NCBI RefSeq assembly: GCF_058153355.1
Contig: NZ_CM177019.1
DNA length: 64,000 nucleotides
Direction: 5' to 3' (one strand)
Shown: piece by piece, positions 2,530-36,968 of the stretch
How positions within the stretch are numbered: the stretch's first letter is position 1
Layout: each line of letters begins with the position of its first letter
Notes under the pieces: model-generated
The model's input: only the letters and a program-made list of their open reading frames with translations
Told to the model about the DNA's origin: nothing
Database searches by the model: none
Made by a program: the position numbers and the translations under genes

Positions 2530-2678
2530 TATGACTCCTGTTTCACGTGTATCAGATATATGCAGTTTGTGAACGTCAGGGCGCAGAGATCCCCGGGCCG
2601 TATGCCCGTTTATTTCTGGCGACATTCTTTATGGATTGCCGGGCGCATTGCGCTTACCCGGCTTACAGAACAAAAAGA

Positions 2679-3236
2679 TTAAAACGTGGTGGGCGTATGG
2701 GCGCTGATAATTCGGCAAATACCTGCCGACGTATTACTGAAACTGTGCGGGATGCCGGTATTAATGGCATAACTTTGCCCCGCGACGAGGTGGTAATCCT
2801 GACCATTAATCGTCAGAACAATTTCACCTTCCAGTACAGTGCCTATTTCCTCACCCTGATGCTTAATTCTTTCCCCAGTGGTTGTGCCCGGCTGGTAAGT
2901 TTCAAAGATCATCGCCAGCGTGCGATTCGGGTTACCGTTATGAACCAGCTTCATTGACACACCCTGACTGCCCATCTCAATTAAGTCGTCCTGATTAATG
3001 ACGACCTGTGGCTCATCAGGTTTTTCCGGCTCGGAAAAGAATTCCGAGAGTGACAGACCATACACCTTCAGCAGCTTTTGCAGCGTACTGATGGCAGGGC
3101 TGACTTTATCTTGTTCTATCGTACTGATAGCACTGTGAGTCAGCCCGGAGAGTTCGGCGGCACGACGTTGTGAAAGCCCCTGCTGCTGGCGGATTTCCGA
3201 CAAGCGTTTTCCTGGCGCCAGTCCCTCATCACTCAT
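2679..3236 (-). CDS. puuR: HTH/cupin transcriptional repressor of the putrescine utilisation genes
   Basis: 185 aa ORF; N-terminal HTH (RLSEIRQQQGLSQRRAAELSGL) plus C-terminal cupin; synteny. Confidence 0.9.
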   Translation of the reverse strand: MSDEGLAPGKRLSEIRQQQGLSQRRAAELSGLTHSAISTIEQDKVSPAISTLQKLLKVYGLSLSEFFSEPEKPDEPQVVINQDDLIEMGSQGVSMKLVHNGNPNRTLAMIFETYQPGTTTGERIKHQGEEIGTVLEGEIVLTINGQDYHLVAGQSYAINTGIPHSFSNTSAGICRIISAHTPTTF

Positions 3237-3262
3237 ATTTGCATTTCCTTAAACTGTAGTGG

Positions 3263-4027
3263 TCAGAGTCGCTGTTTTTCAGCGATATGGTGCTGACAAG
3301 CGGTGATAAAGCCCTCGAACAATATACGCGAAAGCGCGTATTCGCTACTGTTCCATTCCGGGTGCCACTGTACGCCCAGCGCAAAAGGATGATTGATGAC
3401 GCTAACCGCCTCAACTAAGCCATCCGGCGAGCGGGCTTCAACACGCAACCGTGAGCTAACGACCTTCGCCCCTTGTCCATGCAGAGAGTTTACCCAAAAG
3501 TTGCTACATTCAGGTAACAGTGCAGACAGCAATCCCCCCTCTTCAACCTGAACTTCATGCGACGGTGCATATTGCTGTTCCACCGGCAGTTCGGGATCTT
3601 CCCGATGTTCCAGCAATTCAGGCTGTTCGCACAGCTTGCGATGCAACGAACCACCGGTTGCCACCACCAGTTCCTGTAAACCCCGGCAGATGGCGAAAAT
3701 GGGGATGCGCCTTTCGAGTGCGGCATTAATTAACGCCATGCTCAGAAGATCACGCCCGGGATCGGCGTCAGGCTCATCGCCGTTTTCACCATATAGGTGC
3801 GGCTGCACATTGCTGGGACTACCAGGAAGATAAATACCATCGAGTTTCGGCAAAAGTTGTTCAAGTAATGACGGTTCCGCCAGCGCATGTGGCAGCGCAA
3901 TTGGCAAGCCGCCTGCGTGGATGATGGCATTCAGGTACTTTTCTTGCAGAGTCTGGGTCGCATGACCCTTAAGCCTGTTCCTGCACATTACGACACCGAT
4001 AACCGGATTGTTCATTATATTTTCCAT
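3263..4027 (-). CDS. puuD: gamma-glutamyl-GABA hydrolase (class I glutamine amidotransferase-like)
   Basis: ORF 3263..4039; start taken at MENIMNNPVIGVVM; synteny. Confidence 0.88.
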   Translation of the reverse strand: MENIMNNPVIGVVMCRNRLKGHATQTLQEKYLNAIIHAGGLPIALPHALAEPSLLEQLLPKLDGIYLPGSPSNVQPHLYGENGDEPDADPGRDLLSMALINAALERRIPIFAICRGLQELVVATGGSLHRKLCEQPELLEHREDPELPVEQQYAPSHEVQVEEGGLLSALLPECSNFWVNSLHGQGAKVVSSRLRVEARSPDGLVEAVSVINHPFALGVQWHPEWNSSEYALSRILFEGFITACQHHIAEKQRL

Positions 4028-4039
4028 GCTCAATCTCAC

Positions 4040-4238
4040 AAAGTGGACTAAATTATCGCCATTACTGCGCTTTAAATGACCTTTATGTTCAATATTTTTT
4101 CAATCTAGCAGCGGGTTTTCATTTTTGCAAACTTAATTTAACATTTGACAAACATTTAGTTTGCATACGGATTCGAATGGTGGTCATTATATTTTACGCT
4201 TTGATAACGAGCGGAAAACAAACCAAAGGCGAAGAATC
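4040..4238. promoter_or_regulatory. divergent puuA/puuD promoter region with PuuR-box-like AT-rich element (tggtcattatatttt, about 4178..4192)
   Basis: AT-rich divergent intergenic; element resembles the PuuR recognition motif from memory; not scored. Confidence 0.4.
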
Positions 4239-5657
4239 ATGGAAACCAATATCGTTGAAGTAGAGAACTTTGTTCAGCAGTCAGAAGAGAGGCGGGGTAG
4301 CGCCTTTACGCAGGAAGTGAAACGCTACCTGGAGCGCTACCCGAATACGCAATATGTTGATGTTTTACTTACCGATTTGAATGGTTGTTTTCGTGGAAAA
4401 CGTATTCCTGTTTCAAGCCTGAAGAAGCTCGAGAAAGGGTGTTATTTCCCGGCCTCGGTGTTTGCAATGGATATTCTGGGCAACGTAGTAGAAGAAGCGG
4501 GTCTGGGTCAGGAAATGGGCGAGCCGGATCGTACCTGTGTTCCTGTTCTCGGTTCCTTAACCCCATCTGCCGCCGATCCAGAGTTTATCGGTCAGATGCT
4601 CCTGACCATGGTCGATGAAGATGGCGCTCCCTTTGACGTTGAGCCGCGGAACGTTCTTAACCGCCTGTGGCAGCAGCTGCGCCAGCGCGGATTGTTCCCG
4701 GTTGTAGCGGTAGAGCTGGAGTTCTATTTACTGGATCGCCAGCGCGACGCTGAAGGGTATCTGCAACCGCCCTGCGCGCCCGGCACCGATGACCGCAATA
4801 CACAAAGTCAGGTTTACTCCGTTGATAACCTCAACCACTTCGCCGACGTGCTCAATGATATTGATGAGCTGGCGCAGTTACAGCTGATTCCGGCAGATGG
4901 CGCGGTCGCCGAGGCCTCGCCAGGTCAGTTTGAAATCAATCTTTACCATACCGATAACGTGCTGGAAGCTTGCGATGATGCGCTGGCACTAAAACGCCTG
5001 GTGCGTCTGATGGCAGAAAAGCATAAGATGCACGCCACTTTTATGGCGAAGCCGTATGAAGAGCACGCGGGCAGCGGGATGCATATCCATATCAGTATGC
5101 AAAATAATCGTGGCGAGAACGTGCTTTCTGACGCGGAAGGCGAAGATTCGCCGCTGCTGAAAAAGATGCTCGCCGGGATGATTGACCTGATGCCGTCATC
5201 AATGGCGTTGCTGGCACCAAACGTGAACTCGTATCGCCGCTTCCAGCCGGGGATGTATGTACCGACGCAGGCGTCGTGGGGCCATAACAACCGCACCGTC
5301 GCCCTGCGTATTCCCTGCGGCGATCGCCATAATCACCGCGTGGAATATCGCGTGGCGGGTGCCGATGCCAACCCGTATTTGGTGATGGCAGCGATTTTTG
5401 CTGGTATTTTGCATGGCCTTGATAACGAACTGCCATTACAGGAAGAAGTCGAAGGCAACGGGCTGGAACAGGAAGGCTTACCCTTCCCGATTCGCCAGAG
5501 CGATGCCCTGGGTGAGTTTATCGAGAATGATCACCTGCGCCGCTATTTAGGCGAACGCTTCTGCCATGTCTATCACGCCTGTAAAAATGATGAGCTGTTG
5601 CAGTTTGAGCGCCTCATCACAGAAACAGAAATTGAGTGGATGTTGAAAAACGCGTAA
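4239..5657 (+). CDS. puuA: glutamate-putrescine ligase (glutamine synthetase family)
   Basis: ORF 4161..5657; start at ATG 4239 (METNIVEVENF); 472 aa. Confidence 0.9.
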   Translation: METNIVEVENFVQQSEERRGSAFTQEVKRYLERYPNTQYVDVLLTDLNGCFRGKRIPVSSLKKLEKGCYFPASVFAMDILGNVVEEAGLGQEMGEPDRTCVPVLGSLTPSAADPEFIGQMLLTMVDEDGAPFDVEPRNVLNRLWQQLRQRGLFPVVAVELEFYLLDRQRDAEGYLQPPCAPGTDDRNTQSQVYSVDNLNHFADVLNDIDELAQLQLIPADGAVAEASPGQFEINLYHTDNVLEACDDALALKRLVRLMAEKHKMHATFMAKPYEEHAGSGMHIHISMQNNRGENVLSDAEGEDSPLLKKMLAGMIDLMPSSMALLAPNVNSYRRFQPGMYVPTQASWGHNNRTVALRIPCGDRHNHRVEYRVAGADANPYLVMAAIFAGILHGLDNELPLQEEVEGNGLEQEGLPFPIRQSDALGEFIENDHLRRYLGERFCHVYHACKNDELLQFERLITETEIEWMLKNA

Positions 5658-5959
5658 TACCCCTTGCGGGGTTGTTTCAGCGGCCTGAGCGGAGCCAGGC
5701 CTGACATTTGCTGGTAATCCAGACATTTCCCGGATGTCGCGTTATGGAGCGCAGGCGGCAACGGGCTTCCGTTAACGATTAAGACTGTGACGAGGAAATG
5801 AGATGATGCCGATGATTAAATCCCCGCATGGCGAGGGAGGCTGCGTATGCGCCCCTCCTGCGACTGACTGGACTCCGCCCCCTTTGCTTCCCTTGCTAAA
5901 CAGGTTTGATTTCAGGTCGATACGACCGCAAACCTTATTACGCAGGGGAGGCAGCAATT

Positions 5960-8036: not shown

Positions 8037-9680
8037 ATGCGCCAGGTATTATCGTCTCTTTTGGTGATTGCTGGACTTGTGAGTGGTCAGGCAATCGCCG
8101 CGCCTGAATCCCCCCCGCATGCTGATATCCGCGACAGCGGTTTTGTCTATTGCGTCAGCGGGCAAGTCAACACCTTTAACCCATCCAAAGCGAGCAGTGG
8201 GTTAATTGTCGATACCCTTGCCGCCCAGTTTTATGATCGACTCCTGGATGTCGATCCCTATACCTATCGCCTGATGCCGGAACTTGCCGAAAGCTGGGAA
8301 GTGCTCGACAACGGCGCGACCTATCGCTTCCACCTGCGTCGCGATGTTCCGTTTCAAAAAACCGACTGGTTTACTCCCACTCGTAAAATGAATGCCGACG
8401 ATGTGGTGTTTACCTTCCAGCGAATTTTTGACCGTAACAACCCGTGGCATAACGTCAACGGCAGCAACTTTCCCTACTTCGACAGCCTGCAATTTGCCGA
8501 TAACGTGAAAAGCGTCCGCAAACTGGATAATCATACCGTTGAGTTCCGACTCGCCCAGCCAGATGCTTCTTTTTTGTGGCACCTGGCGACCCATTATGCA
8601 TCGGTCATGTCGGCAGAATATGCCCAGAAGTTAGAGAAAGAAGATCGCCAGGAACAACTCGACCGTCAGCCGGTCGGCACTGGACCGTATCAGTTATCGG
8701 AATACCGCGCCGGGCAATTTATTCGCCTACAACGTCATGATGACTTCTGGCGCGGCAAACCGTTAATGCCGCAGGTGGTGGTGGATTTAGGCTCCGGCGG
8801 CACCGGACGTCTTTCGAAACTTCTGACAGGTGAATGCGACGTTCTGGCCTGGCCTGCTGCCAGCCAGCTATCTATTTTGCGTGACGATCCGCGCTTGCGT
8901 TTAACGCTGCGTCCGGGGATGAATGTCGCCTATCTGGCATTTAACACCGCCAAACCGCCGCTTAATAATGCCGCCGTGCGCCATGCGCTGGCTCTGGCGA
9001 TCAATAACCAACGCCTGATGCAATCCATCTATTATGGTACGGCTGAAACGGCGGCCTCTATTTTACCGCGCGCCTCGTGGGCCTATGACAACGAGGCTAA
9101 AATTACTGAATACAATCCGGCGAAATCGCGCGAACAGTTGAAGGCGTTAGGGCTGGAAAACTTAACGCTGAAACTTTGGGTGCCCACACGTTCGCAGGCG
9201 TGGAACCCCAGTCCACTGAAAACCGCCGAACTGATTCAGGCGGATATGGCGCAGGTTGGCGTAAAAGTGGTGATTGTGCCGGTAGAAGGTCGTTTTCAGG
9301 AGGCGCGGTTGATGGATATGAGCCATGATCTGACGTTATCCGGTTGGGCGACAGACAGTAACGATCCGGACAGTTTCTTTCGTCCGCTACTGAGCTGCGC
9401 AGCAATACATTCCCAGACCAACCTCGCCCACTGGTGCGATCCGAAATTCGACAGCGTGTTGCGTAAGGCGCTCTCCTCGCAGCAGCTAGCGGCGCGTATT
9501 GAAGCCTATGACGAAGCGCAAAGTATTCTGGCGCAGGAATTGCCCATTTTGCCGCTGGCGTCGTCATTGCGCTTGCAAGCCTACCGTTACGATATCAAAG
9601 GGCTGGTTCTTAGCCCGTTTGGTAACGCCTCCTTTGCTGGTGTGTATCGCGAGAAACAGGATGAGGTGAAAAAACCATGA
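8037..9680 (+). CDS. sapA: periplasmic substrate-binding protein of the Sap ABC transporter
   Basis: 547 aa; signal peptide [21 protein letters not shown]; family 5 SBP; heads sapABCDF. Confidence 0.92.
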
Positions 9681-10642
9681 TTATCTTCACCTTACGCCGC
9701 ATTTTGTTATTGATTGTCACCTTGTTCCTGCTGACGTTCGTTGGCTTTAGCTTGAGCTATTTCACCCCACATGCGCCGTTACAAGGCGCTTCACTGTGGA
9801 ATGCCTGGGTGTTCTGGTTTAACGGCCTGATCCATTGGGATTTTGGTGTTTCCAGCATTAACGGTCAGCCGATTGCCGAACAGTTAAAAGAGGTCTTCCC
9901 GGCGACGATGGAACTGTGCATCCTCGCCTTCGGTTTTGCGCTGATTGTTGGCATCCCCGTAGGAATGATTGCCGGGATTACGCGCCATAAGTGGCAGGAT
10001 AACTTGATCAACGCCATCGCCTTACTGGGCTTTTCAATCCCGGTGTTCTGGCTGGCGCTTCTGTTGACGCTGTTTTGTTCACTCACGCTAGGTTGGTTGC
10101 CCGTTTCAGGGCGTTTCGATCTGCTCTACGAAGTGAAACCGATTACCGGTTTTGCGTTGATTGATGCCTGGCTTTCGGACTCACCGTGGCGGGATGAAAT
10201 GATCATTAGCGCAATCCGTCATATGGTATTGCCCGTGATCACCCTGTCGGTTGCGCCAACAACTGAAGTGATCCGACTAATGCGTATCAGCACTATCGAA
10301 GTGTATGACCAGAATTATGTAAAAGCGGCGGCGACCCGCGGTTTGTCACGCTTTACTATTTTGCGTCGCCACGTTCTGCATAACGCGTTACCTCCGGTTA
10401 TTCCTCGCCTGGGCTTACAATTTTCCACCATGCTGACGCTGGCAATGATCACCGAAATGGTCTTTAGCTGGCCGGGTTTAGGGCGCTGGTTAATTAACGC
10501 CATCCGCCAGCAAGATTACGCGGCCATTTCCGCCGGAGTGATGGTGTGTGGCTCACTGGTCATTATTGTTAACGTGATTTCTGATATTTTGGGTGCCATG
10601 GCTAACCCTCTGAAACATAAGGAATGGTATGCCTTACGATAG
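9677..10642 (+). CDS. sapB: Sap ABC transporter permease
   Basis: 321 aa membrane protein; start overlaps sapA stop. Confidence 0.92.
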
Positions 10643-11519
10643 CGTATACAGCGAAAAGCGCCCGCCGGGCACGCTGCGTACCGCCTGGCGCAAATTTTAT
10701 AGTGATGCCTCTGCGATGGTCGGTCTGTACGGCTGCGCGGGACTGGCTGTACTGTGTATTTTTGGCGGCTGGTTTGCGCCTTACGGAATCGATCAGCAAT
10801 TTCTCGGCTATCAATTATTGCCGCCTTCATGGTCACGCTATGGCGAAGTTTCTTTCTTCCTGGGGACTGACGACCTCGGACGCGATGTTTTAAGTCGTTT
10901 ACTGAGTGGAGCTGCACCAACCGTGGGGGGGGCATTTGTGGTGACGCTTGCAGCGACGATCTGTGGCCTGGTACTTGGCACCTTTGCCGGGTCGACGCAC
11001 GGTCTACGCTCAGCGGTGCTTAACCATATTCTGGATACCTTACTGGCGATCCCTTCCCTACTGCTGGCAATTATCGTTGTAGCGTTTGCCGGACCGAGTT
11101 TGTCGCACGCCATGTTTGCCGTCTGGCTGGCGCTGCTGCCTCGTATGGTACGTTCGATTTACAGCATGGTGCATGACGAACTGGAAAAAGAGTACGTTAT
11201 CGCCGCCCGTCTGGATGGCGCATCAACGCTGAATATTCTCTGGTTTGCTGTGATGCCAAACATCACCGCCGGGCTGGTCACCGAGATCACCCGCGCACTG
11301 TCGATGGCAATTCTCGATATCGCCGCGCTGGGCTTTCTCGATCTCGGCGCACAACTCCCCTCGCCTGAATGGGGAGCGATGCTCGGTGATGCGCTGGAAC
11401 TGATTTATGTCGCCCCGTGGACTGTCATGCTGCCAGGTGCGGCAATTATGATTAGCGTGCTGTTGGTTAACCTCCTTGGCGACGGTGTTCGTCGTGCAAT
11501 TATTGCGGGGGAGGAATAA
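10629..11519 (+). CDS. sapC: Sap ABC transporter permease
   Basis: 296 aa membrane protein; overlaps sapB by 14 nt. Confidence 0.92.
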
Positions 11520-12511
11520 TGCCATTACTCGATATTCGTAACCTGACCATTGAATTTAAAACCGGTGATGAGTGGGTTAAAGCCGTCGACCGCGTAAGTA
11601 TGACCTTAACCGAAGGTGAAATCCGCGGTCTTGTTGGCGAATCCGGTTCCGGCAAAAGTTTGATTGCAAAAGCAATTTGTGGGGTGAATAAAGATAACTG
11701 GCGTGTTACTGCTGACCGTATGCGTTTTGATGATATCGATTTGCTGCGTCTCTCCGCACGCGAACGGCGCAAGCTGGTTGGTCACAACGTGTCGATGATT
11801 TTCCAGGAACCGCAGTCGTGTCTTGACCCTTCAGAACGTGTGGGTCGCCAGTTGATGCAAAACATCCCAGCCTGGACCTATAAAGGCCGTTGGTGGCAGC
11901 GTTTTGGCTGGCGCAAACGCCGTGCCATTGAACTACTGCACCGTGTGGGGATTAAAGATCACAAAGATGCGATGCGCAGTTTTCCCTATGAGTTGACCGA
12001 AGGTGAATGTCAGAAAGTGATGATAGCCATTGCACTGGCGAATCAACCGCGTCTGCTGATTGCTGACGAACCGACAAACTCAATGGAGCCAACAACCCAG
12101 GCGCAAATTTTTCGCCTGTTGACGCGTCTCAACCAAAACAGCAATACCACTATTTTGCTTATCAGCCATGACTTACAAATGCTTAGCCAATGGGCGGATA
12201 AAATTAACGTGCTTTACTGCGGTCAAACGGTGGAAACCGCGCCAAGCAAGGAGTTGGTGACAATGCCACATCATCCTTATACCCAGGCGCTGATCCGCGC
12301 GATACCAGACTTCGGCAGCGCGATGCCGCATAAAAGTCGCCTCAATACGCTGCCCGGCGCTATCCCACTGCTGGAACAGTTACCGATTGGGTGTCGTCTG
12401 GGGCCGCGTTGCCCGTATGCACAACGAGAATGCATTGTGACGCCACGTTTGACGGGGGCGAAAAATCATCTCTATGCCTGTCATTTCCCGCTGAACATGG
12501 AGAAAGAGTGA
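11519..12511 (+). CDS. sapD: Sap ABC transporter ATP-binding protein
   Basis: 330 aa; Walker A GESGSGKS; start overlaps sapC stop. Confidence 0.92.
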
Positions 12512-12512
12512 G

Positions 12513-13319
12513 ATGATCGAAACGCTGCTTGAAGTGCGTAATTTAAGTAAAACGTTCCGCTACCGGACCGGCTGGTTTCGTCGTCAGACCGTAGAAGCGG
12601 TAAAACCCTTGAGCTTTACGCTACGTGAAGGCCAGACACTGGCGATCATTGGCGAGAATGGTTCTGGTAAATCCACGCTGGCAAAAATGCTGGCGGGAAT
12701 GATAGAACCTACCAGCGGCGAGTTATTGATTGACGATCATCCGCTGCATTTTGGCGATTATTCCTTCCGCAGTCAGCGTATTCGCATGATTTTTCAGGAT
12801 CCTTCGACCTCGTTAAATCCCCGTCAACGTATCTCGCAAATTCTGGATTTTCCACTGCGTCTGAACACCGATCTGGAACCTGAACAGCGTCGCAAACAGA
12901 TTATTGAAACGATGCGTATGGTTGGGCTGCTACCGGATCACGTCAGTTACTATCCGCATATGTTGGCACCCGGGCAAAAACAGCGTCTGGGGCTGGCGCG
13001 CGCGCTGATATTGCGCCCAAAAGTCATTATTGCCGATGAAGCCCTCGCCTCACTGGATATGTCGATGCGTTCGCAGTTGATTAATCTGATGCTGGAATTA
13101 CAGGAAAAACAGGGCATTTCGTATATTTATGTTACCCAGCATATCGGAATGATGAAGCACATTAGCGACCAGGTGCTGGTGATGCATCAGGGAGAGGTTG
13201 TCGAGCGAGGTAGTACTGCGGATGTGCTCGCCTCTCCGCTGCACGACCTCACTAAACGACTGATTGCCGGTCATTTTGGCGAGGCATTGACGGCGGATGC
13301 GTGGCGTAAGGACCGTTAG
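12513..13319 (+). CDS. sapF: Sap ABC transporter ATP-binding protein
   Basis: 268 aa; Walker A GENGSGKST. Confidence 0.92.
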   Translation: MIETLLEVRNLSKTFRYRTGWFRRQTVEAVKPLSFTLREGQTLAIIGENGSGKSTLAKMLAGMIEPTSGELLIDDHPLHFGDYSFRSQRIRMIFQDPSTSLNPRQRISQILDFPLRLNTDLEPEQRRKQIIETMRMVGLLPDHVSYYPHMLAPGQKQRLGLARALILRPKVIIADEALASLDMSMRSQLINLMLELQEKQGISYIYVTQHIGMMKHISDQVLVMHQGEVVERGSTADVLASPLHDLTKRLIAGHFGEALTADAWRKDR

Positions 13320-13326
13320 TGTTTTG

Positions 13327-13365
13327 CACCTCATCCTGACAGGCCCCCCCCCTCAGGATGAGGTG
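13327..13365. terminator. bidirectional intrinsic terminator hairpin between sapF and the convergent MFS gene
   Basis: 13 bp arms cacctcatcctga / tcaggatgaggtg around a C-run loop. Confidence 0.7.
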
Positions 13366-13369
13366 TTCA

Positions 13370-14533
13370 TTACTTTTGATTGTCGATTCTGGTGAGAGCA
13401 ACCAGCAATGCCAGCGTATAACACACCGTAATTGCCAGACTCATTTTTAACAGTGTTTCTCCGCCAATTCCCGACAATGGCGCGGCTATACCGCCGAAGA
13501 CAAACATGCTCATCCCCATCAACGCAGACGCCGTTCCAGATTCCTGCGTCCCTACTGCACTCATAGCCTCTGCCCCGCCAACAGTGCCGATGCCGCTACA
13601 AAATGCGATGGTGAAAAATAATGCCACCAGTGCCGGAATGGGCAATTGTACCCATGCGCATAAGACCGTGAGCAATGCACACAAAATTGCCGCTATCAGG
13701 CCACCTCGCAACAATGTCATCGCGTTAATCCGTCGCGCCAGGCGCGAGAAGATCCATGAAGCAATGATAAGTCCGATGCCGTTAAGGCCAAACACCAGGC
13801 TAAATTGCATTGGACTAAAGCCAAATTCCTTCTGCAACACGAACGACGAAGAGCCGATATACGCAAACAAACCGGCCAGCATAAAACTTTGAATCAGGCA
13901 AAAGCGCATAAAAAGGCGGTTCTGCACCACGCTTCGTCCGGTTAATAGCAATGATGAGCCCCTTTTATTTTCTGGCAAGGTCTCATTAATAAATAACAGG
14001 CAGCCCAGCAACAGTACGGTGCTAATTTCAGCCATTACCCAGAATAAAGTGCGCCAGTCAAAAGTGCTAACAATGTACCCGCCCAGCACTGGCGACAACA
14101 CCGGTGCCAGGCCATTCACCGTCATTAACAGCGCAAAAAACTGGGTCAACGTTACTCCCTGATATTTGTCACGAGCAATAGAACGAGAGAGCACCGAACC
14201 ACCCGCCCCCGCGATCCCTTGAATAAAACGCCAGACCACCAGCCAGTAAATATTGTTCGTTGTCGCGCACAAAATGGAAGAAACAATAAACAATAGCAAC
14301 GACAAGATTAACGGACGTTTACGCCCTATTTTGTCGCTCAGAGGGCCAAATAACAGTTGTCCGACGCCAAGACCGATCAGTGATGCAGTCAGGGTTAATT
14401 GCGTTATGGTCGTGGTTGCCGCCAGTTGCTCAGACATCTCCGGCAAAGCCGGCAAATAAAGATCGGTACACATCGGGCCGATACCGGCTAAAAGACCAAG
14501 AATCAATGCCCATGAAAGAGAGACTCTAGCCAT
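13370..14533 (-). CDS. MFS drug:H+ antiporter, DHA1 (Bcr/CflA-like) family
   Basis: 387 aa, about 12 hydrophobic segments; MFS signature GPLSDKIGRKRP; starts 9 bp after the OMF stop. Confidence 0.8.
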   Translation of the reverse strand: MARVSLSWALILGLLAGIGPMCTDLYLPALPEMSEQLAATTTITQLTLTASLIGLGVGQLLFGPLSDKIGRKRPLILSLLLFIVSSILCATTNNIYWLVVWRFIQGIAGAGGSVLSRSIARDKYQGVTLTQFFALLMTVNGLAPVLSPVLGGYIVSTFDWRTLFWVMAEISTVLLLGCLLFINETLPENKRGSSLLLTGRSVVQNRLFMRFCLIQSFMLAGLFAYIGSSSFVLQKEFGFSPMQFSLVFGLNGIGLIIASWIFSRLARRINAMTLLRGGLIAAILCALLTVLCAWVQLPIPALVALFFTIAFCSGIGTVGGAEAMSAVGTQESGTASALMGMSMFVFGGIAAPLSGIGGETLLKMSLAITVCYTLALLVALTRIDNQK

Positions 14534-14541
14534 ATTATTCC

Positions 14542-15915
14542 TTACTTGAGTGATGACATGCCGCCGCCCAGCGACTGCCAGAGCGTGATTCGGTTTGTAA
14601 AATCAGTCAGTTGCAGTGCCAGCAGCTCCTGCTGTGCGCTCCACAAGCTGCGCTGCGCCGTCAACACGGTCAGGTAATCACCAACACCCGCCTGATAGCG
14701 ACGCAAGCCAACATCGACCGTTTGTTGCTCAGCTTTAACATACTGGCGCTGTGCATCCAGTTGCTCTTCAAGCGTGGTCCGCCGCGCCAGTGCGTTAGCG
14801 ACATCTTTAAATGCGCTCTGAACGGTTTTTTCATAGGTGGCAATGAGCCCACGCTTTTGTGCTTCTGCGTAACGAAGCTGCGCCAGATTACTTCCGCCAG
14901 TGAACAGCGGTAATGTGACCGATGGTGCAAATGACCAGATCTGCATTCCGTGGCTGAACAACGACGACAATGCGTCACTGCCCACACCGGCACTGGCAGT
15001 CAGCGAAATCGTCGGGAAAAAGTTAGCCCGCGCCGCGCCAATATCTGCATTGGCGCTCTTCAAATTATGTTCCGCTTCCTGGATATCCGGGCGACGCAGC
15101 AGAACATCAGATGATACTCCCGCAGGAACCAGACTTATCATTTGTTCCGGCAGGCTTTCCAGTGTTCCCGGTAGCAGATTTTCCGCAAGCGTTGTACCTG
15201 CCAGTAAGTTCAGCGCATTTTTATCCTGCATCACTTGTGTCTGATAGCTGGCAACGCTGGCGCGCGCTTGCTGATAAACACTCATCGCCTCACTGACATC
15301 TGTCGCTGCCGCCGTGCCAACCTGTTGCTGGCGCTGGATAATTTTCAATGAGTTTTCTGCACTGGCCATCGTTTCTTTTGCCAGGGCCAGGTTGCTGTTA
15401 TCGGCCGCCAGTGTCAGCCAGGCGGTGCTGATTTCAGCAATCAGCGTTAAACGAGTGTTCTGGGCTGTAAATTCACTGGCAAGCCAGGTTTCCCGCGCCG
15501 CCCGAGATAAACTCTGATTACGACCAAACAGATCTAACGTATAACTGGACACCGTGCCGTCAGCCTCGGCAGTTGTTCCCGTACCATTCGCCAGCGAACG
15601 ACTGCGAGTCGAACTTAAGGCCGCATTCACCGTCGGAAATAACGACGCATTAGTTTGCCCATAGAGCGCCCGTGCTGAGTCAATATCAGCAATCGCTTTT
15701 TGCACATCGCGGTTACTGTTCAGTGCAATGGTTACTACCTGCTGCAATCGGGGATCGTGAATCACCTGCTGCCAGTCATGGCTGATTGCCTTCCCCTGGC
15801 CCTGTGCTCCCGGCAAGGTCGCCGGGATTGGGGATTCAGGCGTACTGTAGTGAGGATCGAGCGAGACACATCCCGCACTCAACAACACCAGAAAAATAAG
15901 AGAACGACGCAACAT
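14542..15915 (-). CDS. outer-membrane efflux lipoprotein, NodT/OprM family
   Basis: 457 aa; lipoprotein signal MLRRSLIFLVLLSAGC; OMF-like repeats; 4 bp after the RND stop. Confidence 0.85.
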   Translation of the reverse strand: MLRRSLIFLVLLSAGCVSLDPHYSTPESPIPATLPGAQGQGKAISHDWQQVIHDPRLQQVVTIALNSNRDVQKAIADIDSARALYGQTNASLFPTVNAALSSTRSRSLANGTGTTAEADGTVSSYTLDLFGRNQSLSRAARETWLASEFTAQNTRLTLIAEISTAWLTLAADNSNLALAKETMASAENSLKIIQRQQQVGTAAATDVSEAMSVYQQARASVASYQTQVMQDKNALNLLAGTTLAENLLPGTLESLPEQMISLVPAGVSSDVLLRRPDIQEAEHNLKSANADIGAARANFFPTISLTASAGVGSDALSSLFSHGMQIWSFAPSVTLPLFTGGSNLAQLRYAEAQKRGLIATYEKTVQSAFKDVANALARRTTLEEQLDAQRQYVKAEQQTVDVGLRRYQAGVGDYLTVLTAQRSLWSAQQELLALQLTDFTNRITLWQSLGGGMSSLK

Positions 15916-15918
15916 AAC

Positions 15919-18900
15919 TTACTCCTGACGGCGCGGTTTACCGGCAAACAAACGTTTCACCAGTACAAAAAACAGAGGAACGAAGAAAATGGCCAGTAAT
16001 GTAGCGGTCAGCGTGCCGCCAATAATGCCCGTACCAATGGCGATGCGGCTGTTCGCCCCTGCACCGGTTGCTATCGCCAGCGGCATTACCCCCGCAATAA
16101 ACGCCAGCGAGGTCATGATGATTGGGCGTAAACGAGTCTGCGCCGCGCGTAATGCCGCACGACTCAAGGAATAACCCTCTGCAACCGCCGCTTCAGCAAA
16201 TTCCACAATCAGAATGGCGTTTTTCGACGACAAGCCGATAGTAGTTAATAGCGCTACCTGGAAGTAAACGTCGTTGTTTAAATCACGCATCCAGGCCGCC
16301 AGCGCCGCGCCAAGAAGCCCCAGAGGGATCACCAGAATGACCGAGAACGGGACTGACCAGCTTTCGTACAGTGCTGCAAGGCAGAGGAAAACCACCAGAA
16401 TAGAAACTGCATACAGACTTAATGCCTGACCGCTCGCCAGTTTCTCCTGCAATGACAAACCACTCCAGGCCCAGGTTGTTCCCGCAGGAAGACTGTTTGC
16501 CAGTTCCTCCATTTTTGTCATTGCATCGCCGGAACTAAAGCCAGTCGCGTTTTCGCCCTGAATTTCATAGGCTGCCGAGCCGTTGTAGCGCACCAGTCTT
16601 TCCGGTCCATACTGCCAGCGGGTGGTCGCAAAAGCAGAGAATGGTGTCATGGCGTTATCGCTACCGCGCACAAACCATTTACCTAAGTCTGACGGCGCAG
16701 AACGAAATTCGCTGTCGCCCTGAATGTAGACTTTTTTCACACGACCACGGTCAATAAAGTCATTCACATAAGTACCGCCCCACGCACTGGACAGGGTGTC
16801 GGTGACATCATTCAAACTCAACCCTAATGACACCGCTTTATTGCTATCAATATCTACCTGCAATTGCGGCATTTGTGGCAAATCATTGGCGCGTACAGAA
16901 TGTAACTCCGGACTTTGATTCGCTTTTTCTATCAACTGATTACGCATTTGCAGCAGTGTTTCACGATCGGTTCCACCGTTAGCTAACAATTCAAACGTAA
17001 AACCATTGCTTTGGCCCAGCCCATCAACGGCTGGCGGCGTCATCGCAAATACCGTCGCATCACGAATTGTGCCCAGCTCTTTGGTAGCCCGTAGGGCGAT
17101 AGCCTGGGCGGTGTTTTCTGCCCCTTTACGTTGAGACCAGTTTTTCAACGAAACAAACGCCATCCCGGTGTTCTGTCCGCTGCCGCTAAAACTGAAACCA
17201 TCAACGGTAAAAATGACATCGGTATTTGCTTTCTCGTTAATCAGGAACCAGTCAACAATCTGGCGATTCACTTCTGCTGTACGGGCAGCGGTCGCCCCGG
17301 CCGGCAGCGTGTACTGCACCATGATTTCGCCCTGGTCTTCAGTGGGTAAGAAACTGCCCGGCAGTTTCCACATCATCAGGGCCATTCCACCACCCAGCAC
17401 GACATAAAGCCCCATCGTTCGGGCTGCACGGCGCAGGACATAAATTACGCCTCGCTGATATTTATCTTCAGTACGGCGGTAAAAGCGGTTAAATGCGCCG
17501 AAAAAGCCTTTTTTATGTGGCGGAACATGCTGGAGGACGGAACCGCACAGGGCGGGAGTCAAGGTCAATGCCACCACCACGGAAAGCAGCATTGCGGAGA
17601 TGATGGTGATGGAGAACTGACGATAAATTACGCCCGTAGATCCCCCAAAGAAGGCCATCGGCAGGAATACGGCTGACAACACCAGCGCAATGGCAACCAG
17701 TGCGCCAGAAATCTCGCCCATTGATTTTTCCGTGGCTTCACGCGCGGGCAACCCTTCGTCACGCATAATGCGTTCGACGTTCTCCACCACCACAATGGCA
17801 TCGTCCACCAGCAAGCCGATCGCCAGCACCATTGCAAACAACGTCAGGGTATTAATCGAATAGCCAAACAACGCAAGAACGCCGAATGTGCCCAGCCAAA
17901 CGACGGGGACAGCTAACGCCGGAATCAGTGTGGCACGCAGGTTTTGCAGGAATAAATACATCACGCAAACCACCAATACGATGGCTTCAAACAGCGTCTG
18001 AATTACGTCCTCTACGGAGATTTTAATAAATTCAGTGCTGTCTTTCGGGTATGCGATGTCGTATCCCTGCGGCATGTTCCGCTGGAATTCGGCAATCTTA
18101 TCCTTGACCAGCGTCGCCGTATTCAGCGCATTCGCACCGGGCGAAAGCATTACAGCAACCCCGGCAGACGGGTGACCGTTAAGTTTGCCGATAGCGGTAT
18201 AATCTTCACTGCCCATCTCAACGCGAGCCACATCTTTTATACGAACAACTGCGCCGTCTGACTGGCTTTTCACGATAATATTTTTGAACTGATCCACCGT
18301 CTGCAAGCGAGACTGCGCACGTACCGTTGCGGTCAGTTGCTGAGTATCCGGTGAAGGCAATGCCCCTATTTTCCCGGCAGTAACCTGCACGTTTTGCGCT
18401 TCAATAGCACTTTGCACGTCTGAAGGCATCAGCGAGTAAGACGCCAGTTTGGCCGGGTCGAGCCAGATGCGCATAGCGTATTCCGCGCCAAAGACTTGCA
18501 GACTCCCCACACCTTCAACACGCGCCAGGGGGTCCTGAACGTTACTGACCAGCCAGTCGGCGATATCCGAACTGGAGGCTTTGTCAGTGGTGTCATACAC
18601 GGCAGCAATCAGCAAAAAGTTGCTTTGTGATTTCTCCACCGTAACACCCGTTTGCTGCACTTCGCTGGGTAGGCGCGACTCCGCCTGCTGAATTTTATTC
18701 TGCACCTGAACCTGTGCAGTATCTGGATCGGTACCTTGTTCAAAGGTCACATTAATACTGACCGAACCATCAGAGCTACTGGTTGAGCTGAAATAGAGTA
18801 AATTATCAAGCCCAGTGAGTTGTTGCTCGATAACCTGAGTCACGCTGTTCTCCAGCGTTTCGGCAGAAGCACCAGTATAAGTGGCTGAAATTTTAATGGT

Positions 18901-19026
18901 CGGCGGTGCAACGTCAGGATATTGCGCGACGGGTAATGTGCGAATAGCCAGAATCCCCGCCAACATAATCAAAATGGCGATAACCCAGGCAAAGACCGGG
19001 CGGCGAACAAAAAAGCGCGAAAACAT
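15919..19026 (-). CDS. RND multidrug efflux permease, HAE1 (AcrB/MexB-like) family
   Basis: 1035 aa; N-terminus MFSRFFVRRPVFAWVIAILIML typical of AcrB-type pumps; 12-TM with two large periplasmic loops. Confidence 0.9.
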   Translation of the reverse strand: MFSRFFVRRPVFAWVIAILIMLAGILAIRTLPVAQYPDVAPPTIKISATYTGASAETLENSVTQVIEQQLTGLDNLLYFSSTSSSDGSVSINVTFEQGTDPDTAQVQVQNKIQQAESRLPSEVQQTGVTVEKSQSNFLLIAAVYDTTDKASSSDIADWLVSNVQDPLARVEGVGSLQVFGAEYAMRIWLDPAKLASYSLMPSDVQSAIEAQNVQVTAGKIGALPSPDTQQLTATVRAQSRLQTVDQFKNIIVKSQSDGAVVRIKDVARVEMGSEDYTAIGKLNGHPSAGVAVMLSPGANALNTATLVKDKIAEFQRNMPQGYDIAYPKDSTEFIKISVEDVIQTLFEAIVLVVCVMYLFLQNLRATLIPALAVPVVWLGTFGVLALFGYSINTLTLFAMVLAIGLLVDDAIVVVENVERIMRDEGLPAREATEKSMGEISGALVAIALVLSAVFLPMAFFGGSTGVIYRQFSITIISAMLLSVVVALTLTPALCGSVLQHVPPHKKGFFGAFNRFYRRTEDKYQRGVIYVLRRAARTMGLYVVLGGGMALMMWKLPGSFLPTEDQGEIMVQYTLPAGATAARTAEVNRQIVDWFLINEKANTDVIFTVDGFSFSGSGQNTGMAFVSLKNWSQRKGAENTAQAIALRATKELGTIRDATVFAMTPPAVDGLGQSNGFTFELLANGGTDRETLLQMRNQLIEKANQSPELHSVRANDLPQMPQLQVDIDSNKAVSLGLSLNDVTDTLSSAWGGTYVNDFIDRGRVKKVYIQGDSEFRSAPSDLGKWFVRGSDNAMTPFSAFATTRWQYGPERLVRYNGSAAYEIQGENATGFSSGDAMTKMEELANSLPAGTTWAWSGLSLQEKLASGQALSLYAVSILVVFLCLAALYESWSVPFSVILVIPLGLLGAALAAWMRDLNNDVYFQVALLTTIGLSSKNAILIVEFAEAAVAEGYSLSRAALRAAQTRLRPIIMTSLAFIAGVMPLAIATGAGANSRIAIGTGIIGGTLTATLLAIFFVPLFFVLVKRLFAGKPRRQE

Positions 19027-20147
19027 CAGGCATTGCCTCCATTAGCCTGAACTTCAACAGCCTTGACGGTCTGCCCTGAAGTGACTTTGGCAGAACCTTC
19101 AACAATCAGTCGGTCGCCGTTGTGCAGGCCGTTCAGCACCAGCCATTTATCACCATACGTTTCTCCCGTTTCGAGCGTTCGCTGCTCTACTTTATTGTCT
19201 TTATTCACCACCAGCGCAGTTGCATTGCCTTTAGCATCGCGCGTAACGCCCTGTTGAGGCGCGAGAATAGCGTTTTCCATCACGCCTTCATCGACACGAG
19301 CGCGAACAAACATTCCCGGTAATAACTGCTGTTGTGGATTGGGGAAAATTGCCCGTAATGTCACCGAACCGGTAGACTCATCCACCGCGACTTCGGTGAG
19401 TTCCAGACGCCCTTTTTCGCTGTAGGTTGTGCCATCTTCCAGAATAAGTGAGACGCTCATGGTGTCACTGTTGGTCGCCAGTGACTGTTTACGCAGACGT
19501 AATAAATCGACACTGGAGCGAGTGAGGTCGACATACATTGTATCCAGACCACGAATAGTCGTTAACGCTGTATCCTGCGACGCGGTCACCAGTGCGCCAG
19601 GGGTTACCGACGAAATACCAATACGCCCCGAAATCGGTGCGGTTACCGTGGTCCAGTCAAGATTAATGCGCGCAGTTTCCAGTGCGGCTTTTTTCGCCTC
19701 TACACTGGCTTTATCTTGTGCACAGGTAGACTGAGCATCATCAGCATCCTGTTGTGAAACACCATTCTCTTTCACCAGTCGGGCATAACGCTGCGCTTTC
19801 TGGCAATCGGCTTTTACCAGTGCCTGTGCTTGTTGTAATGCTGCCCGGGCTTCATTCCATGCAGCCTGATAACTGGCCGCATCAATCTGGTAGAGAGGCT
19901 GTCCAGCCTTGACCAGATCACCTTCCTTAAATAAGCGTTTCTGGATAATTCCCCCAACTTGCGGACGTACTTCAGCACTGAGCGCAGCACTGGTGCGTCC
20001 GGTTAATTCACTGACTACCGAAACCGGTTGAGATTTGAGCGTAACAACGCCGACTTCTGTTTCTGACGGGGATGAATTGTTACTTTGCGTATTATCACAA
20101 CCCGATAAGAGCAGCATTGCCACTACAGATGTTGCTATATACTTCAT
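19026..20147 (-). CDS. RND periplasmic adaptor (membrane fusion protein) lipoprotein
   Basis: ORF 19026..20180; start at MKYIATSVVAMLLLSGC (lipobox); stop overlaps the RND start. Confidence 0.85.
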   Translation of the reverse strand: MKYIATSVVAMLLLSGCDNTQSNNSSPSETEVGVVTLKSQPVSVVSELTGRTSAALSAEVRPQVGGIIQKRLFKEGDLVKAGQPLYQIDAASYQAAWNEARAALQQAQALVKADCQKAQRYARLVKENGVSQQDADDAQSTCAQDKASVEAKKAALETARINLDWTTVTAPISGRIGISSVTPGALVTASQDTALTTIRGLDTMYVDLTRSSVDLLRLRKQSLATNSDTMSVSLILEDGTTYSEKGRLELTEVAVDESTGSVTLRAIFPNPQQQLLPGMFVRARVDEGVMENAILAPQQGVTRDAKGNATALVVNKDNKVEQRTLETGETYGDKWLVLNGLHNGDRLIVEGSAKVTSGQTVKAVEVQANGGNA

Positions 20148-20231
20148 TATTTTCTCCAGGGTGAGAAATACCCTCCTCATTGAAATTAATGAGGATATGT
20201 CAGGGATATTCAGTTATAACGAACCCGCATC

Positions 20232-20247
20232 GCGAAATGAATTTCGC
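20232..20247. promoter_or_regulatory. 7-2-7 inverted repeat gcgaaat-ga-atttcgc upstream of the adaptor gene; candidate TetR operator
   Basis: Read directly; lies between the tetR terminator hairpin and the adaptor start. Confidence 0.45.
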
Positions 20248-20257
20248 AATGAAATAA

Positions 20258-20275
20258 GGGGGATTAATATCCCCC
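20258..20275. terminator. hairpin gggggat-taat-atccccc, T-rich on the minus strand; candidate tetR terminator
   Basis: Perfect 7 bp stem about 20 bp after the tetR stop (minus strand). Confidence 0.5.
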
Positions 20276-20295
20276 GCTATTGGTTAATTCTGTTC

Positions 20296-20862
20296 TTATT
20301 TATTTATCAACATACTAACAATATCCTGATATATTTCCTGCAGATGTTGTGGATCGCTTTTTTGCGGTGTTAAACGACGATAAACCGTACCTTCCATCAT
20401 GGTAGCAAACACTTCAACGCAGCAATGAATGTGATCGTCGCTAAGATGGGGATGCATTCTTTTCATATGTGCACAACCGTTAGCGAACATTCTGGCGTCA
20501 GCTTCTTCAAGCATTGCCATAACCCGCGGGTTGCGTGTGGCTTCTGCAGCCACTTCCAGCATCAGCGCGTCGTCGTCCTCATTTAAGGATTTACGCAAGG
20601 CAAGGACTTCCGGGAAGTGATCGGTACGCGCGTCAATGTCCATTTGGGCAATACGAAAGTCGATGATACGGCGAACCATCTCTTCAATAATGGCGTCTTT
20701 GTTGGCGAAGTAACGATATATCTGACCCACGCTAAGCTGAGCTTCGCTGGCAATTTGCGACATACTGGCGGCATGAAATCCGCAGCGACGAAAACACCGA
20801 CGGGCGGCGTTAATGATTTCATCCTGACGCTGTTTGTGGCGTATCTCCAGCTTGCTGGTCAT
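20296..20862 (-). CDS. TetR/AcrR-family transcriptional regulator
   Basis: ORF 20296..20961; start at MTSKLEI with AGGAG 7 nt upstream; HTH region AARRCFRRCGFHAASMSQIASEAQLSVGQIYRYF. Confidence 0.8.
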   Translation of the reverse strand: MTSKLEIRHKQRQDEIINAARRCFRRCGFHAASMSQIASEAQLSVGQIYRYFANKDAIIEEMVRRIIDFRIAQMDIDARTDHFPEVLALRKSLNEDDDALMLEVAAEATRNPRVMAMLEEADARMFANGCAHMKRMHPHLSDDHIHCCVEVFATMMEGTVYRRLTPQKSDPQHLQEIYQDIVSMLINK

Positions 20863-20887
20863 TTCTGTCTCCTGGCCTATCACTTGG

Positions 20888-20905
20888 TGAGAATGATCAT
20901 TCTCA
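20888..20905. promoter_or_regulatory. 18 bp perfect palindrome tgagaatgatcattctca, 26 bp upstream of the tetR start; candidate autoregulatory operator
   Basis: Read directly on the sequence. Confidence 0.4.
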
Positions 20906-21339
20906 TTTTTGCTAATTATACGTTTCTCCAAAGTAATGGAAAGTATTTTTATCTTATTCATGGTGCATATTCTGATAATGAAGAGATTGTGGAGATTCTG
21001 TGAAGATAGTTGACAATATTAAGTTGGGGTCAATTCATCAGAAAGGCAGCGACTTGTTGTCGCCAGTTCTGTTTTCATCATCAAACTTATCGGAGCTAAT
21101 ACGAATAGTTTCATAGTCAGATTCTATAAGATATTTCCCCAACCTACCCCTTGCAGGCGTCAAGAGTAGATAACGCAAAATGCTCTGTACCGCAGCTTCT
21201 CTCCGGTACAGAAAGCGCAACTATAGCCACCCACAGCCAGGTTGATTATAATAACCGTTTATCTGTTCGTACTGTTTACTAAAACGACGAATCGCCTGAT
21301 TTTCAGGCACAACAAGCATCAACAATAAGGATTAAAGCT

Positions 21340-22128
21340 ATGGGTTTTCTTTCCGGTAAGCGCATTCTGGTAACCGGTGTTGCCAGCAAACTGTCCATCG
21401 CCTACGGTATCGCTCAGGCGATGCACCGCGAAGGAGCTGAACTGGCATTCACCTACCAGAACGACAAACTGAAAGGCCGCGTAGAAGAATTTGCCGCTCA
21501 ATTGGGTTCTGACATCGTTCTGCAGTGCGATGTTGCAGAAGATGCCAGCATCGACACCATGTTCGCTGAACTGGGTAAAGTTTGGCCGAAATTTGACGGC
21601 TTTGTACATTCCATTGGTTTTGCACCGGGCGATCAGCTGGATGGTGACTATGTTAACGCCGTTACTCGTGAAGGCTTCAAAATTGCCCACGACATCAGCT
21701 CCTACAGCTTCGTTGCAATGGCAAAAGCTTGCCGCTCCATGCTGAATCCGGGCTCTGCCCTGCTGACCCTTTCCTACCTTGGCGCTGAGCGCGCTATCCC
21801 GAACTACAACGTTATGGGTCTGGCAAAAGCGTCTCTGGAAGCGAACGTGCGCTATATGGCGAACGCGATGGGTCCGGAAGGTGTGCGTGTTAACGCCATC
21901 TCTGCTGGTCCGATCCGTACTCTGGCGGCTTCCGGTATCAAAGACTTCCGCAAAATGCTGGCTCATTGCGAAGCCGTTACCCCGATTCGCCGTACCGTTA
22001 CTATTGAAGATGTGGGTAACTCTGCGGCATTCCTGTGCTCCGATCTCTCTGCCGGTATCTCCGGTGAAGTGGTCCACGTTGACGGCGGTTTCAGCATCGC
22101 TGCAATGAACGAACTCGAACTGAAATAA
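21340..22128 (+). CDS. fabI: enoyl-ACP reductase (NADH), SDR family
   Basis: 262 aa; [29 protein letters not shown]-terminus; ends AAMNELELK. Confidence 0.95.
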
Positions 22129-22180
22129 TTTGACGGCGGTTTCAGCATCGCTGCAATGAACGAACTCGAACTGAAATAAT
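22079..22180. repeat. perfect tandem direct repeat, 2 x 51 bp, duplicating the last 16 codons plus stop of fabI
   Basis: 22079..22129 and 22130..22180 are identical base for base. Confidence 0.9.
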
Positions 22181-36596: not shown

Positions 36597-36736
36597 AGCT
36601 CCTCCTTAATGACAGGGTTGCGAAGCCCTGATTCTCTTCAGGGTGAATATTAAAGATAACACAAACATTGCGTAACGATTTGATAACAACCCAAATTGAT
36701 AAAAGAGGAGAAACCTTGTGGCAAAGCAAATGAAAA

Positions 36737-36752
36737 CCCCGCCGCAGCGGGG
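36737..36752 (-). terminator. hairpin ccccgc-cgca-gcgggg followed by T-run on the minus strand
   Basis: Sits 8 bp downstream of the 26-codon minus-strand ORF. Confidence 0.5.
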
Positions 36753-36759
36753 TCAGGGA

Positions 36760-36840
36760 TCAGTGAGTAATGATCCAGAGGAGTTCGGCCCAGAAGAGCA
36801 TCGACAGAGAAAATGCGCCCATCCAGGACCAATATTTCAT
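36760..36840 (-). CDS. candidate 26 aa hydrophobic small protein (MKYWSWMGAFSLSMLFWAELLWIITH)
   Basis: ATG to TGA, single TM-like peptide, followed by a terminator hairpin; too short for the ORF track. Confidence 0.3.
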   Translation of the reverse strand: MKYWSWMGAFSLSMLFWAELLWIITH

Positions 36841-36968
36841 ATTTGTGTTGATCATAGGCTACACCCTTAACGGTTATTACTTTGTGTTGAGATAACTCAA
36901 CCTGTTATTGCTGCGGTGTATTAAAAGCCCTTTAATTCATTAAAAATGGGTAATAAGAATGATGATAA

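Follow-up and report, generated by a model that had tools for sequence, protein, structure and literature searches.

The sapF-fabI interval of an Escherichia coli chromosome carries the eefRABCD efflux operon, with a structured spacer between eefR and eefA

The tripartite efflux pumps AcrAB-TolC of Escherichia coli and MexAB-OprM of Pseudomonas aeruginosa have the same architecture as EefABC and belong to the same family, the resistance-nodulation-division (RND) pumps. The published descriptions present eefRABCD as a normally silent "seventh" RND pump of E. coli with a companion major facilitator superfamily (MFS) pump. The genes eefR, eefA, and eefB were noted in some E. coli and in E. albertii (Colclough 2019, PMC6790063), and the five-gene cluster eefRABCD was named and sited between sapF and fabI by Pugh (bioRxiv 2024; Microbial Genomics 2026, PMC12817139), who reported it from phylogroups B2, D, E, F, and G, with ycjD in its place in A, B1, and C. 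The name EefD is used in both PMC12817139 and PMC12482432. Here, we analyze a stretch of 64,000 nucleotides (nt) from contig NZ_CM177019.1 of RefSeq assembly GCF_058153355.1, hereafter the window, in which the sapF-fabI interval is filled by an efflux gene cluster.

EefB is ~57% identical to AcrB and MexB, and EefC is without the aspartate gate of TolC (Pugh, PMC12817139). Compared to AcrAB-TolC, the eef operon encodes its own OprM-type channel in place of TolC. Compared to both AcrAB-TolC and MexAB-OprM, eefR is co-oriented and co-transcribed with the pump genes, not divergent from them, and an MFS gene (eefD) is part of the operon. In the mdtABCD operon of E. coli, the MFS transporter MdtD is likewise co-transcribed at the 3' end of an RND operon, as eefD is. 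Unlike eef, however, the mdt operon encodes a heteromeric RND pump, MdtBC, which works with TolC under the control of the two-component system BaeSR, and MdtD is not of the Bcr/CflA type.

The orthologous tripartite RND pump of Klebsiella (Enterobacter) aerogenes, EefABC, has an EefA that is 75% identical and an EefB whose N-terminal 424 amino acids (aa) are 88% identical (one contig). Its genes sit at a different genomic site from E. coli eefRABCD, and the TetR gene upstream of eefA, although in the same orientation, encodes a protein only 58% identical to EefR. As cited in PMC12817139, Masi et al. (2003-2006) describe it as a three-gene operon, cryptic in laboratory conditions and silenced by H-NS, and report that it gives erythromycin and ticarcillin resistance.

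Taken as a whole, window positions 13327-21189 are best explained as the chromosomal E. coli eefRABCD locus, controlled by a repressor, old, and vertically inherited, and we hold this reading with high confidence. The identification follows because the protein families, the residues numbered in the literature, the operator, the identity to a sequence type 73 (ST73) strain, and the sapF-fabI site all agree. The first-pass annotation had read the interval as a strain-variable efflux island; it is not an unrecognized one, since the locus is real, not new, and already described and named. When compared to the published loci of strains ATCC 25922, SMS-3-5, and ATCC 35218, the site, the gene order, the protein lengths, the residues, the operator half-sites, and the 148-bp spacer are the same, and the window differs only allelically. 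The papers number 20 residues of EefA, EefB, EefC, and EefR, and each of them has its exact match in the window proteins, including D206, G412, L415, T416, L418, and T419 of EefC; R120, R123, L124, V125, S131, D134, D136, and Q221 of EefA; and V45 and R50 of EefR. The five genes share 99.3-99.5% nucleotide identity with their counterparts in ST73 strain clone D i14, and the ST73 allele is ~100% identical to the reference ATCC 25922 (Pugh, Table 1, PMC12817139). In clone D i14 itself, a 1-nt deletion at the equivalent of window position 18817 causes eefB to be annotated as a pseudogene, which may be a genuine inactivation or a fault of the sequencing.

Five intact open reading frames (ORFs) on the minus strand fill the interval between sapF (12513-13319, plus strand) and fabI (21340-22128, plus strand) in the order eefR-A-B-C-D, on the strand opposite to their neighbors (Table 1). 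The five co-oriented genes of the first-pass annotation were confirmed by the ORF scan, by NCBIfam and, for the regulator, by Pfam PF00440, and the ORF translations as sequenced contain no internal stops or frameshifts. The longest frames of the scan are those of Table 1 for eefD, eefC, and eefB, together with 19026-20180 (384 aa) for the adaptor and 20296-20961 (221 aa) for the regulator. Because RefSeq annotates proteins of 373 aa and 188 aa in clone D i14, the starts of eefA and eefR were set to 20147 and 20862. The 221-aa regulator beginning at 20961 is therefore shortened, and the EefR operator falls inside its longest-frame extension. Apart from these two starts, the coordinates of the first-pass annotation stand. 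The junctions between the genes measure -1, 3, and 8 nt, with a 148-nt gap after eefR.

TABLE 1 Position and description of the features of the eefRABCD locus in the window
Feature	Position	Strand	Description
Left-border hairpin	13327..13365	.	Between convergent sapF and eefD; 13-nt arms 13327-13339 / 13353-13365, 100% complementary
eefD	13370..14533	-	387-aa MFS efflux transporter, Bcr/CflA subfamily; 99.3% nt identity to ST73 clone D i14
eefC	14542..15915	-	457-aa outer-membrane factor lipoprotein, NodT/OprM type; lipobox LSAGC
eefB	15919..19026	-	1035-aa RND (HAE1) permease
eefA	19026..20147	-	373-aa periplasmic adaptor lipoprotein; lipobox LLSGC; stop overlaps eefB start by 1 nt
eefR-eefA spacer	20148..20295	-	148 nt, three conserved hairpins (HP1 to HP3)
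HP3	20195-20174	-	Hairpin
HP2	20251-20228	-	Stem GCGAAAT-N-ATTTCGC
HP1	20275-20258	-	GGGGGAT/ATCCCCC, then TTATTTCATT; terminator-like
eefR	20296..20862	-	188-aa TetR-family autorepressor; RefSeq start; V45 and R50 present; function shown in PMC12482432
EefR operator	20888..20905	.	Perfect 18-bp palindrome TGAGAATGATCATTCTCA; only TGAGAA-N6-TTCTCA match in the window
Promoter-like site for eefR(ABCD)	20942-20915	-	-35 TTTCCA, 16-nt spacer, -10 TATAAT; directly upstream of the operator
AT-rich non-coding region	20943..21189	.	Island-specific, up to the right border; G+C 0.41-0.47

Families were assigned with NCBIfam models and their curated cut-offs, which four of the five proteins exceed. EefD scores 279 bits against TIGR00710 (Bcr/CflA; cut-off, 200.9) and stays under the TcaB and Bcr equivalog cut-offs. 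EefC, whose N terminus carries a lipobox with its cysteine (MLRRSLIFLVLLSAGC), reaches 373.8 bits against TIGR01845 (NodT type; cut-off, 210) and fails the TolC equivalog test (NF007002; 56 versus a cut-off of 495). OprM is its top match among solved structures, where no TolC entry appears at an E value of ≤1e-20. EefB scores 1552 bits against TIGR00915 (HAE1; cut-off, 940.35) and 1500 against NF000282 (cut-off, 1250), and falls under the equivalog cut-offs for AcrB (1379 versus 2150) and AcrD (1410 versus 1854). By these scores, it is a paralog distinct from AcrB and AcrD. The nearest solved structures to EefB are AcrB and MexB, and its proton-relay residues D408, D409, K935, and T972 are all in place. 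EefA, which has a lipoprotein signal (MKYIATSVVAMLLLSGC), scores 274 bits against the RND adaptor model TIGR01730 (cut-off, 94.9); it scores best against the MexA model, yet it stays under both the MexA and the AcrA equivalog cut-offs. The TetR-family assignment of EefR comes from Pfam PF00440, carried by its 98%-identical protein cluster, and its solved-structure matches are all TetR-family proteins. The nearest of these is UidR/GusR (E = 1e-12), a glucuronide sensor, which may serve as a lead, and only a lead, toward the natural signal of EefR. The search for the closest characterized pump, suggested by the first-pass annotation, thus ends at the published eefRABCD, with AcrB/MexB and OprM as the solved relatives of EefB and EefC.

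In the published work, EefR, a 188-aa TetR-family dimer, represses its own promoter via TGAGAA-N6-TTCTCA, as established by electrophoretic mobility shift assays (EMSA), point mutants, and a gfp reporter (Shen 2025, PMC12482432). Reverse transcription-PCR (RT-PCR) across all junctions, together with quantitative RT-PCR, placed the five genes on one transcript from the EefR-repressed promoter, and loss of eefR raised expression 27- to 83-fold (Shen, PMC12482432). In the window, the operator spacer holds a T where ATCC 35218 and ST73 hold a C, and this T makes the palindrome perfect. The promoter-like site has the top minus-strand score, matching the consensus at 10 of 12 positions; because it lies directly upstream of the operator, bound EefR would cover the start region. 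The operator half-sites and the -10 are invariant in four other Escherichia species. A promoter scan found no promoter-like sites in the eefR-eefA spacer, which, together with the tight gene junctions, appears consistent with the published co-transcription. Given the published transcription from one promoter and a spacer without a promoter-like site, the genes form a single five-gene operon, and not a regulator gene beside a separate four-gene operon as first proposed.

The spacer between eefR and eefA is itself structured. It folds at -46.5 kcal/mol, compared to -32.2 +/- 3.9 kcal/mol for shuffled sequences (z = -3.7), and the corresponding z-scores in other genera range from -1.8 to -4.4. 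The spacers of Kluyvera, Dryocola, Enterobacter, Cronobacter, Klebsiella, and Kosakonia have hairpins at the same relative positions with other stem sequences, while single-sequence folds of Phytobacter and K. aerogenes reproduce the set in part (two of three in Phytobacter). A covariance model built from three Escherichia sequences only finds the element directly after eefR in Enterobacter, Cronobacter, Kluyvera, Raoultella, Dryocola, Klebsiella, K. aerogenes, and Pluralibacter. It misses the Phytobacter and Kosakonia spacers, though Kosakonia folds show comparable hairpins at similar positions. In a 14-sequence alignment fitted to this model, 93.1% of cells pair, compared to 76.4% after shuffling (0 of 500 shuffles reach 93.1%) and 49-58% with the partners slid, and 20 of the 25 base pairs show changes on both sides. 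RNAalifold on a MAFFT alignment recovered, besides HP2, only a small helix ahead of the eefA ribosome-binding site; HP1 and HP3 were missed because indels misaligned both.

Because the stems covary freely, the alignment would argue for a structure that acts at the RNA level rather than for a protein operator. The HP2 stem, GCGAAAT-N-ATTTCGC, was considered as a second EefR operator, an idea that was dropped because it does not match TGAGAA-N6-TTCTCA and because the 148-bp eefR-eefA fragment was the non-binding EMSA control probe for EefR (Shen, PMC12482432). A dispersed repeat of the repetitive extragenic palindromic (REP) or enterobacterial repetitive intergenic consensus (ERIC) type was rejected as well, as the spacer is present in one copy, and in eef-positive genomes only. 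No Rfam family covers the spacer; a scan at E ≤ 1 gave one sub-threshold chance match inside eefA. The words terminator, hairpin, and stem-loop are absent from Shen (PMC12482432), the one paper text-searched for spacer structure. We tentatively suggest that the spacer could be a cis-acting RNA element whose hairpins persist, with altered stem sequences, in at least nine enterobacterial genera, a proposal that we still consider doubtful. Its roles may include partial termination, processing or stability, and translational control of eefA.

In Escherichia sp. MOD1-EC7003 (L003), a ~125-bp insertion at ~5610-5735 separates the eefR stop from HP1, and a similar end sequence occurs upstream of eefR. 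The insertion may be an ERIC element, which it resembles. A further conserved hairpin, at 21047-21065, lies inside the AT-rich region of the window.

The claim that K-12 carries only ycjD between sapF and fabI is borne out by the K-12 annotation and by the alignment: the interval reads sapF, ycjD, fabI, with ycjD as the sole gene at the site. Homology between the window and K-12 ends at 13326 and resumes at 21190, and 7,863 bp in the window replace 633 bp in K-12. This is a replacement, as opposed to an insertion into a vacant site. Of 5,426 complete E. coli genomes, 2,037 have the full eef block and 3,378 have ycjD, together accounting for 5,415. The block is therefore strain-variable, as first proposed, and eef and ycjD look like two mutually exclusive alternative alleles. 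The borders are also as clean as described. On the left lies the sapF hairpin, probably the sapF terminator because a T-rich run follows it on the plus strand; it is common to both alleles, with a compensatory T/A to C/G change in the K-12 stem. The right border lies 34 nt upstream of a promoter-like -35 of fabI that both alleles share.

Conserved operon fragments have been described in the sapF-fabI interval of eef-negative strains (Pugh, PMC12817139). A blastn comparison (word size 7) of the 633-bp K-12 segment with the island gave a best score of 23.8 bits, compared to 23.4 +/- 1.9 over 100 shuffles, so that eef remnants in K-12 were rejected. The only element common to the two is an arm of the sapF hairpin, and tblastn with YcjD found no matches anywhere in the window. 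The published "operon remnants" thus find no support for K-12. The ycjD gene of K-12 is followed, ~90 bp downstream, by a diverged copy of its own last ~50 bp, set in GC-rich, repeat-like sequence (L002, 2690-2850), and because of this repeat, the ycjD cassette itself looks like a rearranged remnant.

Species-representative genomes were scanned with EefB. E. albertii, E. whittamii, Escherichia sp. MOD1-EC7003, and SCPM-O-B-8794, a record titled "E. coli" that is counted here among four other Escherichia species, all have the arrangement rnb-yciW-fabI / eefRABCD / sapF-sapD at the same site and in the same orientation. Across these species, nucleotide identity to the window is 88-95% for the eef genes and 88-96% for sapF and fabI. 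The G+C content of the eef block, ~52%, is like that of the flanks, which agrees with the earlier remark that the block is not compositionally distinct; the regulatory region alone is AT-rich. At the borders, where integrase remnants and target-site duplications had been proposed as signs of insertion, neither of these, nor terminal direct or inverted repeats, transposase remnants, or a tRNA, was found beyond chance-level short repeats. A mobile genomic island was accordingly rejected, there being no integrase, flanking repeats, tRNA/att site, or atypical composition. On the strength of the shared synteny in four species, the flank-like divergence, the missing marks of mobility, and the normal G+C content, the eef allele is probably ancestral to the genus Escherichia and the K-12-type ycjD allele derived. 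The last ancestor that these species share would have had the eef genes, and the 633-bp ycjD segment would have replaced them in the line of descent of phylogroups A, B1, and C, to which K-12 belongs.

The same data bear on the alternative that eef is a horizontally acquired island inserted in the sapF-fabI gap of some E. coli lineages, and lateral transfer has also been proposed by Pugh et al. (PMC12817139). Such an origin would account for the patchy presence across E. coli, for an EefC and an EefA closer to Pseudomonas OprM and MexA than to TolC and AcrA, for the Kluyvera and Dryocola clusters, whose examined flanks hold neither sapF nor fabI, and for the reported absence of eef from Salmonella and E. 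fergusonii (Pugh, PMC12817139; Colclough, PMC6790063). It sits poorly with the exact site and orientation common to the four other species, with eef divergence similar to that of the flanks, with the unmarked borders and flank-like G+C content, and with an absent state that is a different 633-bp cassette rather than an empty site. We therefore regard acquisition by some lineages as improbable, and any transfer would have to predate the radiation of the genus. Of the two origins offered by the first-pass annotation, old or acquired from a close relative, age is favored by the four Escherichia species that share the site, while recent acquisition is disfavored by the flank-like divergence.

A complete eefRABCD-like cluster also occurs in CP191473.1 (L058, labeled Salmonella enterica; 9001-16531), beside AraC-family and TonB-dependent receptor genes, a context also seen in Phytobacter and Kosakonia. 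Given the surveys without eef in Salmonella, this record represents either a rare acquisition or a mislabeled genome.

The locus would work as follows. On the published evidence, an EefR dimer binds the palindrome just downstream of its own -10 and keeps the five-gene transcript nearly silent. From family membership and homology, the EefA adaptor, the proton-driven RND permease EefB, and the OprM-like channel EefC would form a tripartite pump for the export of amphiphilic compounds through the outer membrane, and the MFS protein EefD would move substrates over the inner membrane, perhaps handing them to the RND pump in the periplasm. The structured 148-nt spacer, we infer, probably modulates the transcription and translation that reach the pump genes.

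Several points weigh against this account of the locus. The eef promoter is only a consensus match. The polarity of loss over gain rests on four other species and on the literature absence from E. fergusonii and Salmonella, and the Kluyvera intermedia eefRABCD and Dryocola eefRABC clusters are without sapF or fabI in the flanks examined. Given the surroundings of the Kluyvera, Dryocola, and Salmonella-labeled clusters, eef may have arrived at the sapF-fabI site in an ancient event, at the base of the genus. The two functional studies disagree on substrates: one reports export of ethidium and rhodamine 6G with no change in any antibiotic minimum inhibitory concentration (MIC) (Pugh, PMC12817139), whereas in the other, several MICs of acrB-null cells rose 8- to 32-fold on overexpression (Shen, PMC12482432). 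Deletion of eefABC in ATCC 25922 was without phenotype (Pugh, PMC12817139). Finally, the pair counts of the spacer come from the model-fitted alignment, and the role of its hairpins is one that we infer.

Silence in laboratory conditions and a deletion without phenotype, both from the literature, could also describe a decaying, functionless remnant, dispensable and en route to loss. The cluster has been lost already from phylogroups A, B1, and C and from ST69 and ST182, and is disrupted by an insertion sequence (IS) in Shigella dysenteriae (Pugh, PMC12817139), and clone D i14 has its 1-nt eefB frameshift. However, the five ORFs of the window are intact, with proton-relay residues and lipoboxes kept, and the spacer hairpins, like the operator and the -10, are conserved between species. 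Moreover, conservation of the eef genes is comparable to that of acrAB-tolC across 19,247 assemblies (Pugh, PMC12817139), the pump exports ethidium, and derepression raises MICs (Pugh, PMC12817139; Shen, PMC12482432). Decay is thus a very unlikely description of the locus.

A further reading, put forward in the abstract of Shen (PMC12482432), makes eefRABCD a mobile multidrug-resistance determinant spread by plasmids. Shen lists five E. coli strains in which the cluster is given as plasmid-borne (PMC12482432), and three E. coli "plasmid" records in PLSDB hold the full cluster: NZ_CP141085.1 (L044; 385 kb), CP054253.1 (L045; 252 kb), and NZ_CP134663.1 (H33; 4.9 Mb). Our check covered these PLSDB records, two of which were opened, not the five strains of Shen. 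All three are typed as non-mobilizable. The 385-kb and 252-kb records carry the chromosomal order ymjA-sapABCDF-eef-fabI-yciW-rnb, including the essential gene fabI, with pdeR also annotated in the 385-kb record, and the third is the size of a chromosome. The ycjD allele is likewise found on "plasmid" records, in five places, suggesting that either allele can be mislabeled. The PLSDB eef copies therefore look like mislabeled pieces of chromosome; a plasmid location was rejected for the records inspected, whose chromosomal neighborhood is present, and we consider plasmid spread extremely unlikely. These apparently mislabeled records weaken the published warning of rapid spread by plasmids.

Outside Escherichia, parts of the operon occur in other combinations. 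EefR homologs of 58-71% identity are widespread in Enterobacterales. In Pluralibacter gergoviae (L051, 2501-4526), an eefR homolog is followed by an EefD ortholog (68% identical) with no RND genes between them, and in Erwinia toletana (L052) and Pantoea sp. (L053) (2501-4272), the eefR homolog overlaps by 4 nt an MFS gene encoding a protein 48-49% identical to EefD. In Enterobacter cloacae and Dryocola, eefRABC is present and eefD is missing. The TetR-MFS pair may be the older unit, with eefABC inserted later, or a five-gene operon may have lost parts repeatedly.

Other features of the window lie outside the operon. A perfect 51-bp tandem duplication at 22079-22180 (2.0 copies, 100% match) takes in the last ~49 bp of fabI with its stop codon; the FabI protein is unaltered, and a second copy of the fabI 3' end follows. 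The duplication appears to be absent from 5,421 complete E. coli genomes, where the best matches all span 170 bp and not 221 bp. It is unique to this strain, as either a private polymorphism or an assembly error. The window sapF (12513-13326) is unusually divergent, being 96.6% identical to both K-12 and ST73 and reaching ≥99% identity in only 1 of 5,422 genomes. Beside eef genes that match ST73 at 99.3-99.5% identity, such divergence suggests that the region is a recombination mosaic, with its breakpoint close to the sapF hairpin. Rfam matches at the gathering threshold, to the small RNA STnc180 and the tryptophan operon leader at 36726-36928 (minus strand) and 48859-48952 (plus strand), are ordinary features of the chromosomal region.

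For the biology of E. coli, the locus matters as a seventh RND pump that is confined to the phylogroups most tied to extraintestinal and enterohemorrhagic disease, a point that is already in print. The polarity proposed here makes the K-12 state probably a replacement of the ancestral eef allele. If the spacer is indeed an RNA element, it could gate read-through or translation from eefR into the pump genes as a second layer of control beyond EefR; it would then explain why the pump is cryptic and might respond to a natural signal. The conserved, structured spacer offers a tangible starting point for learning how silencing of the pump is maintained.

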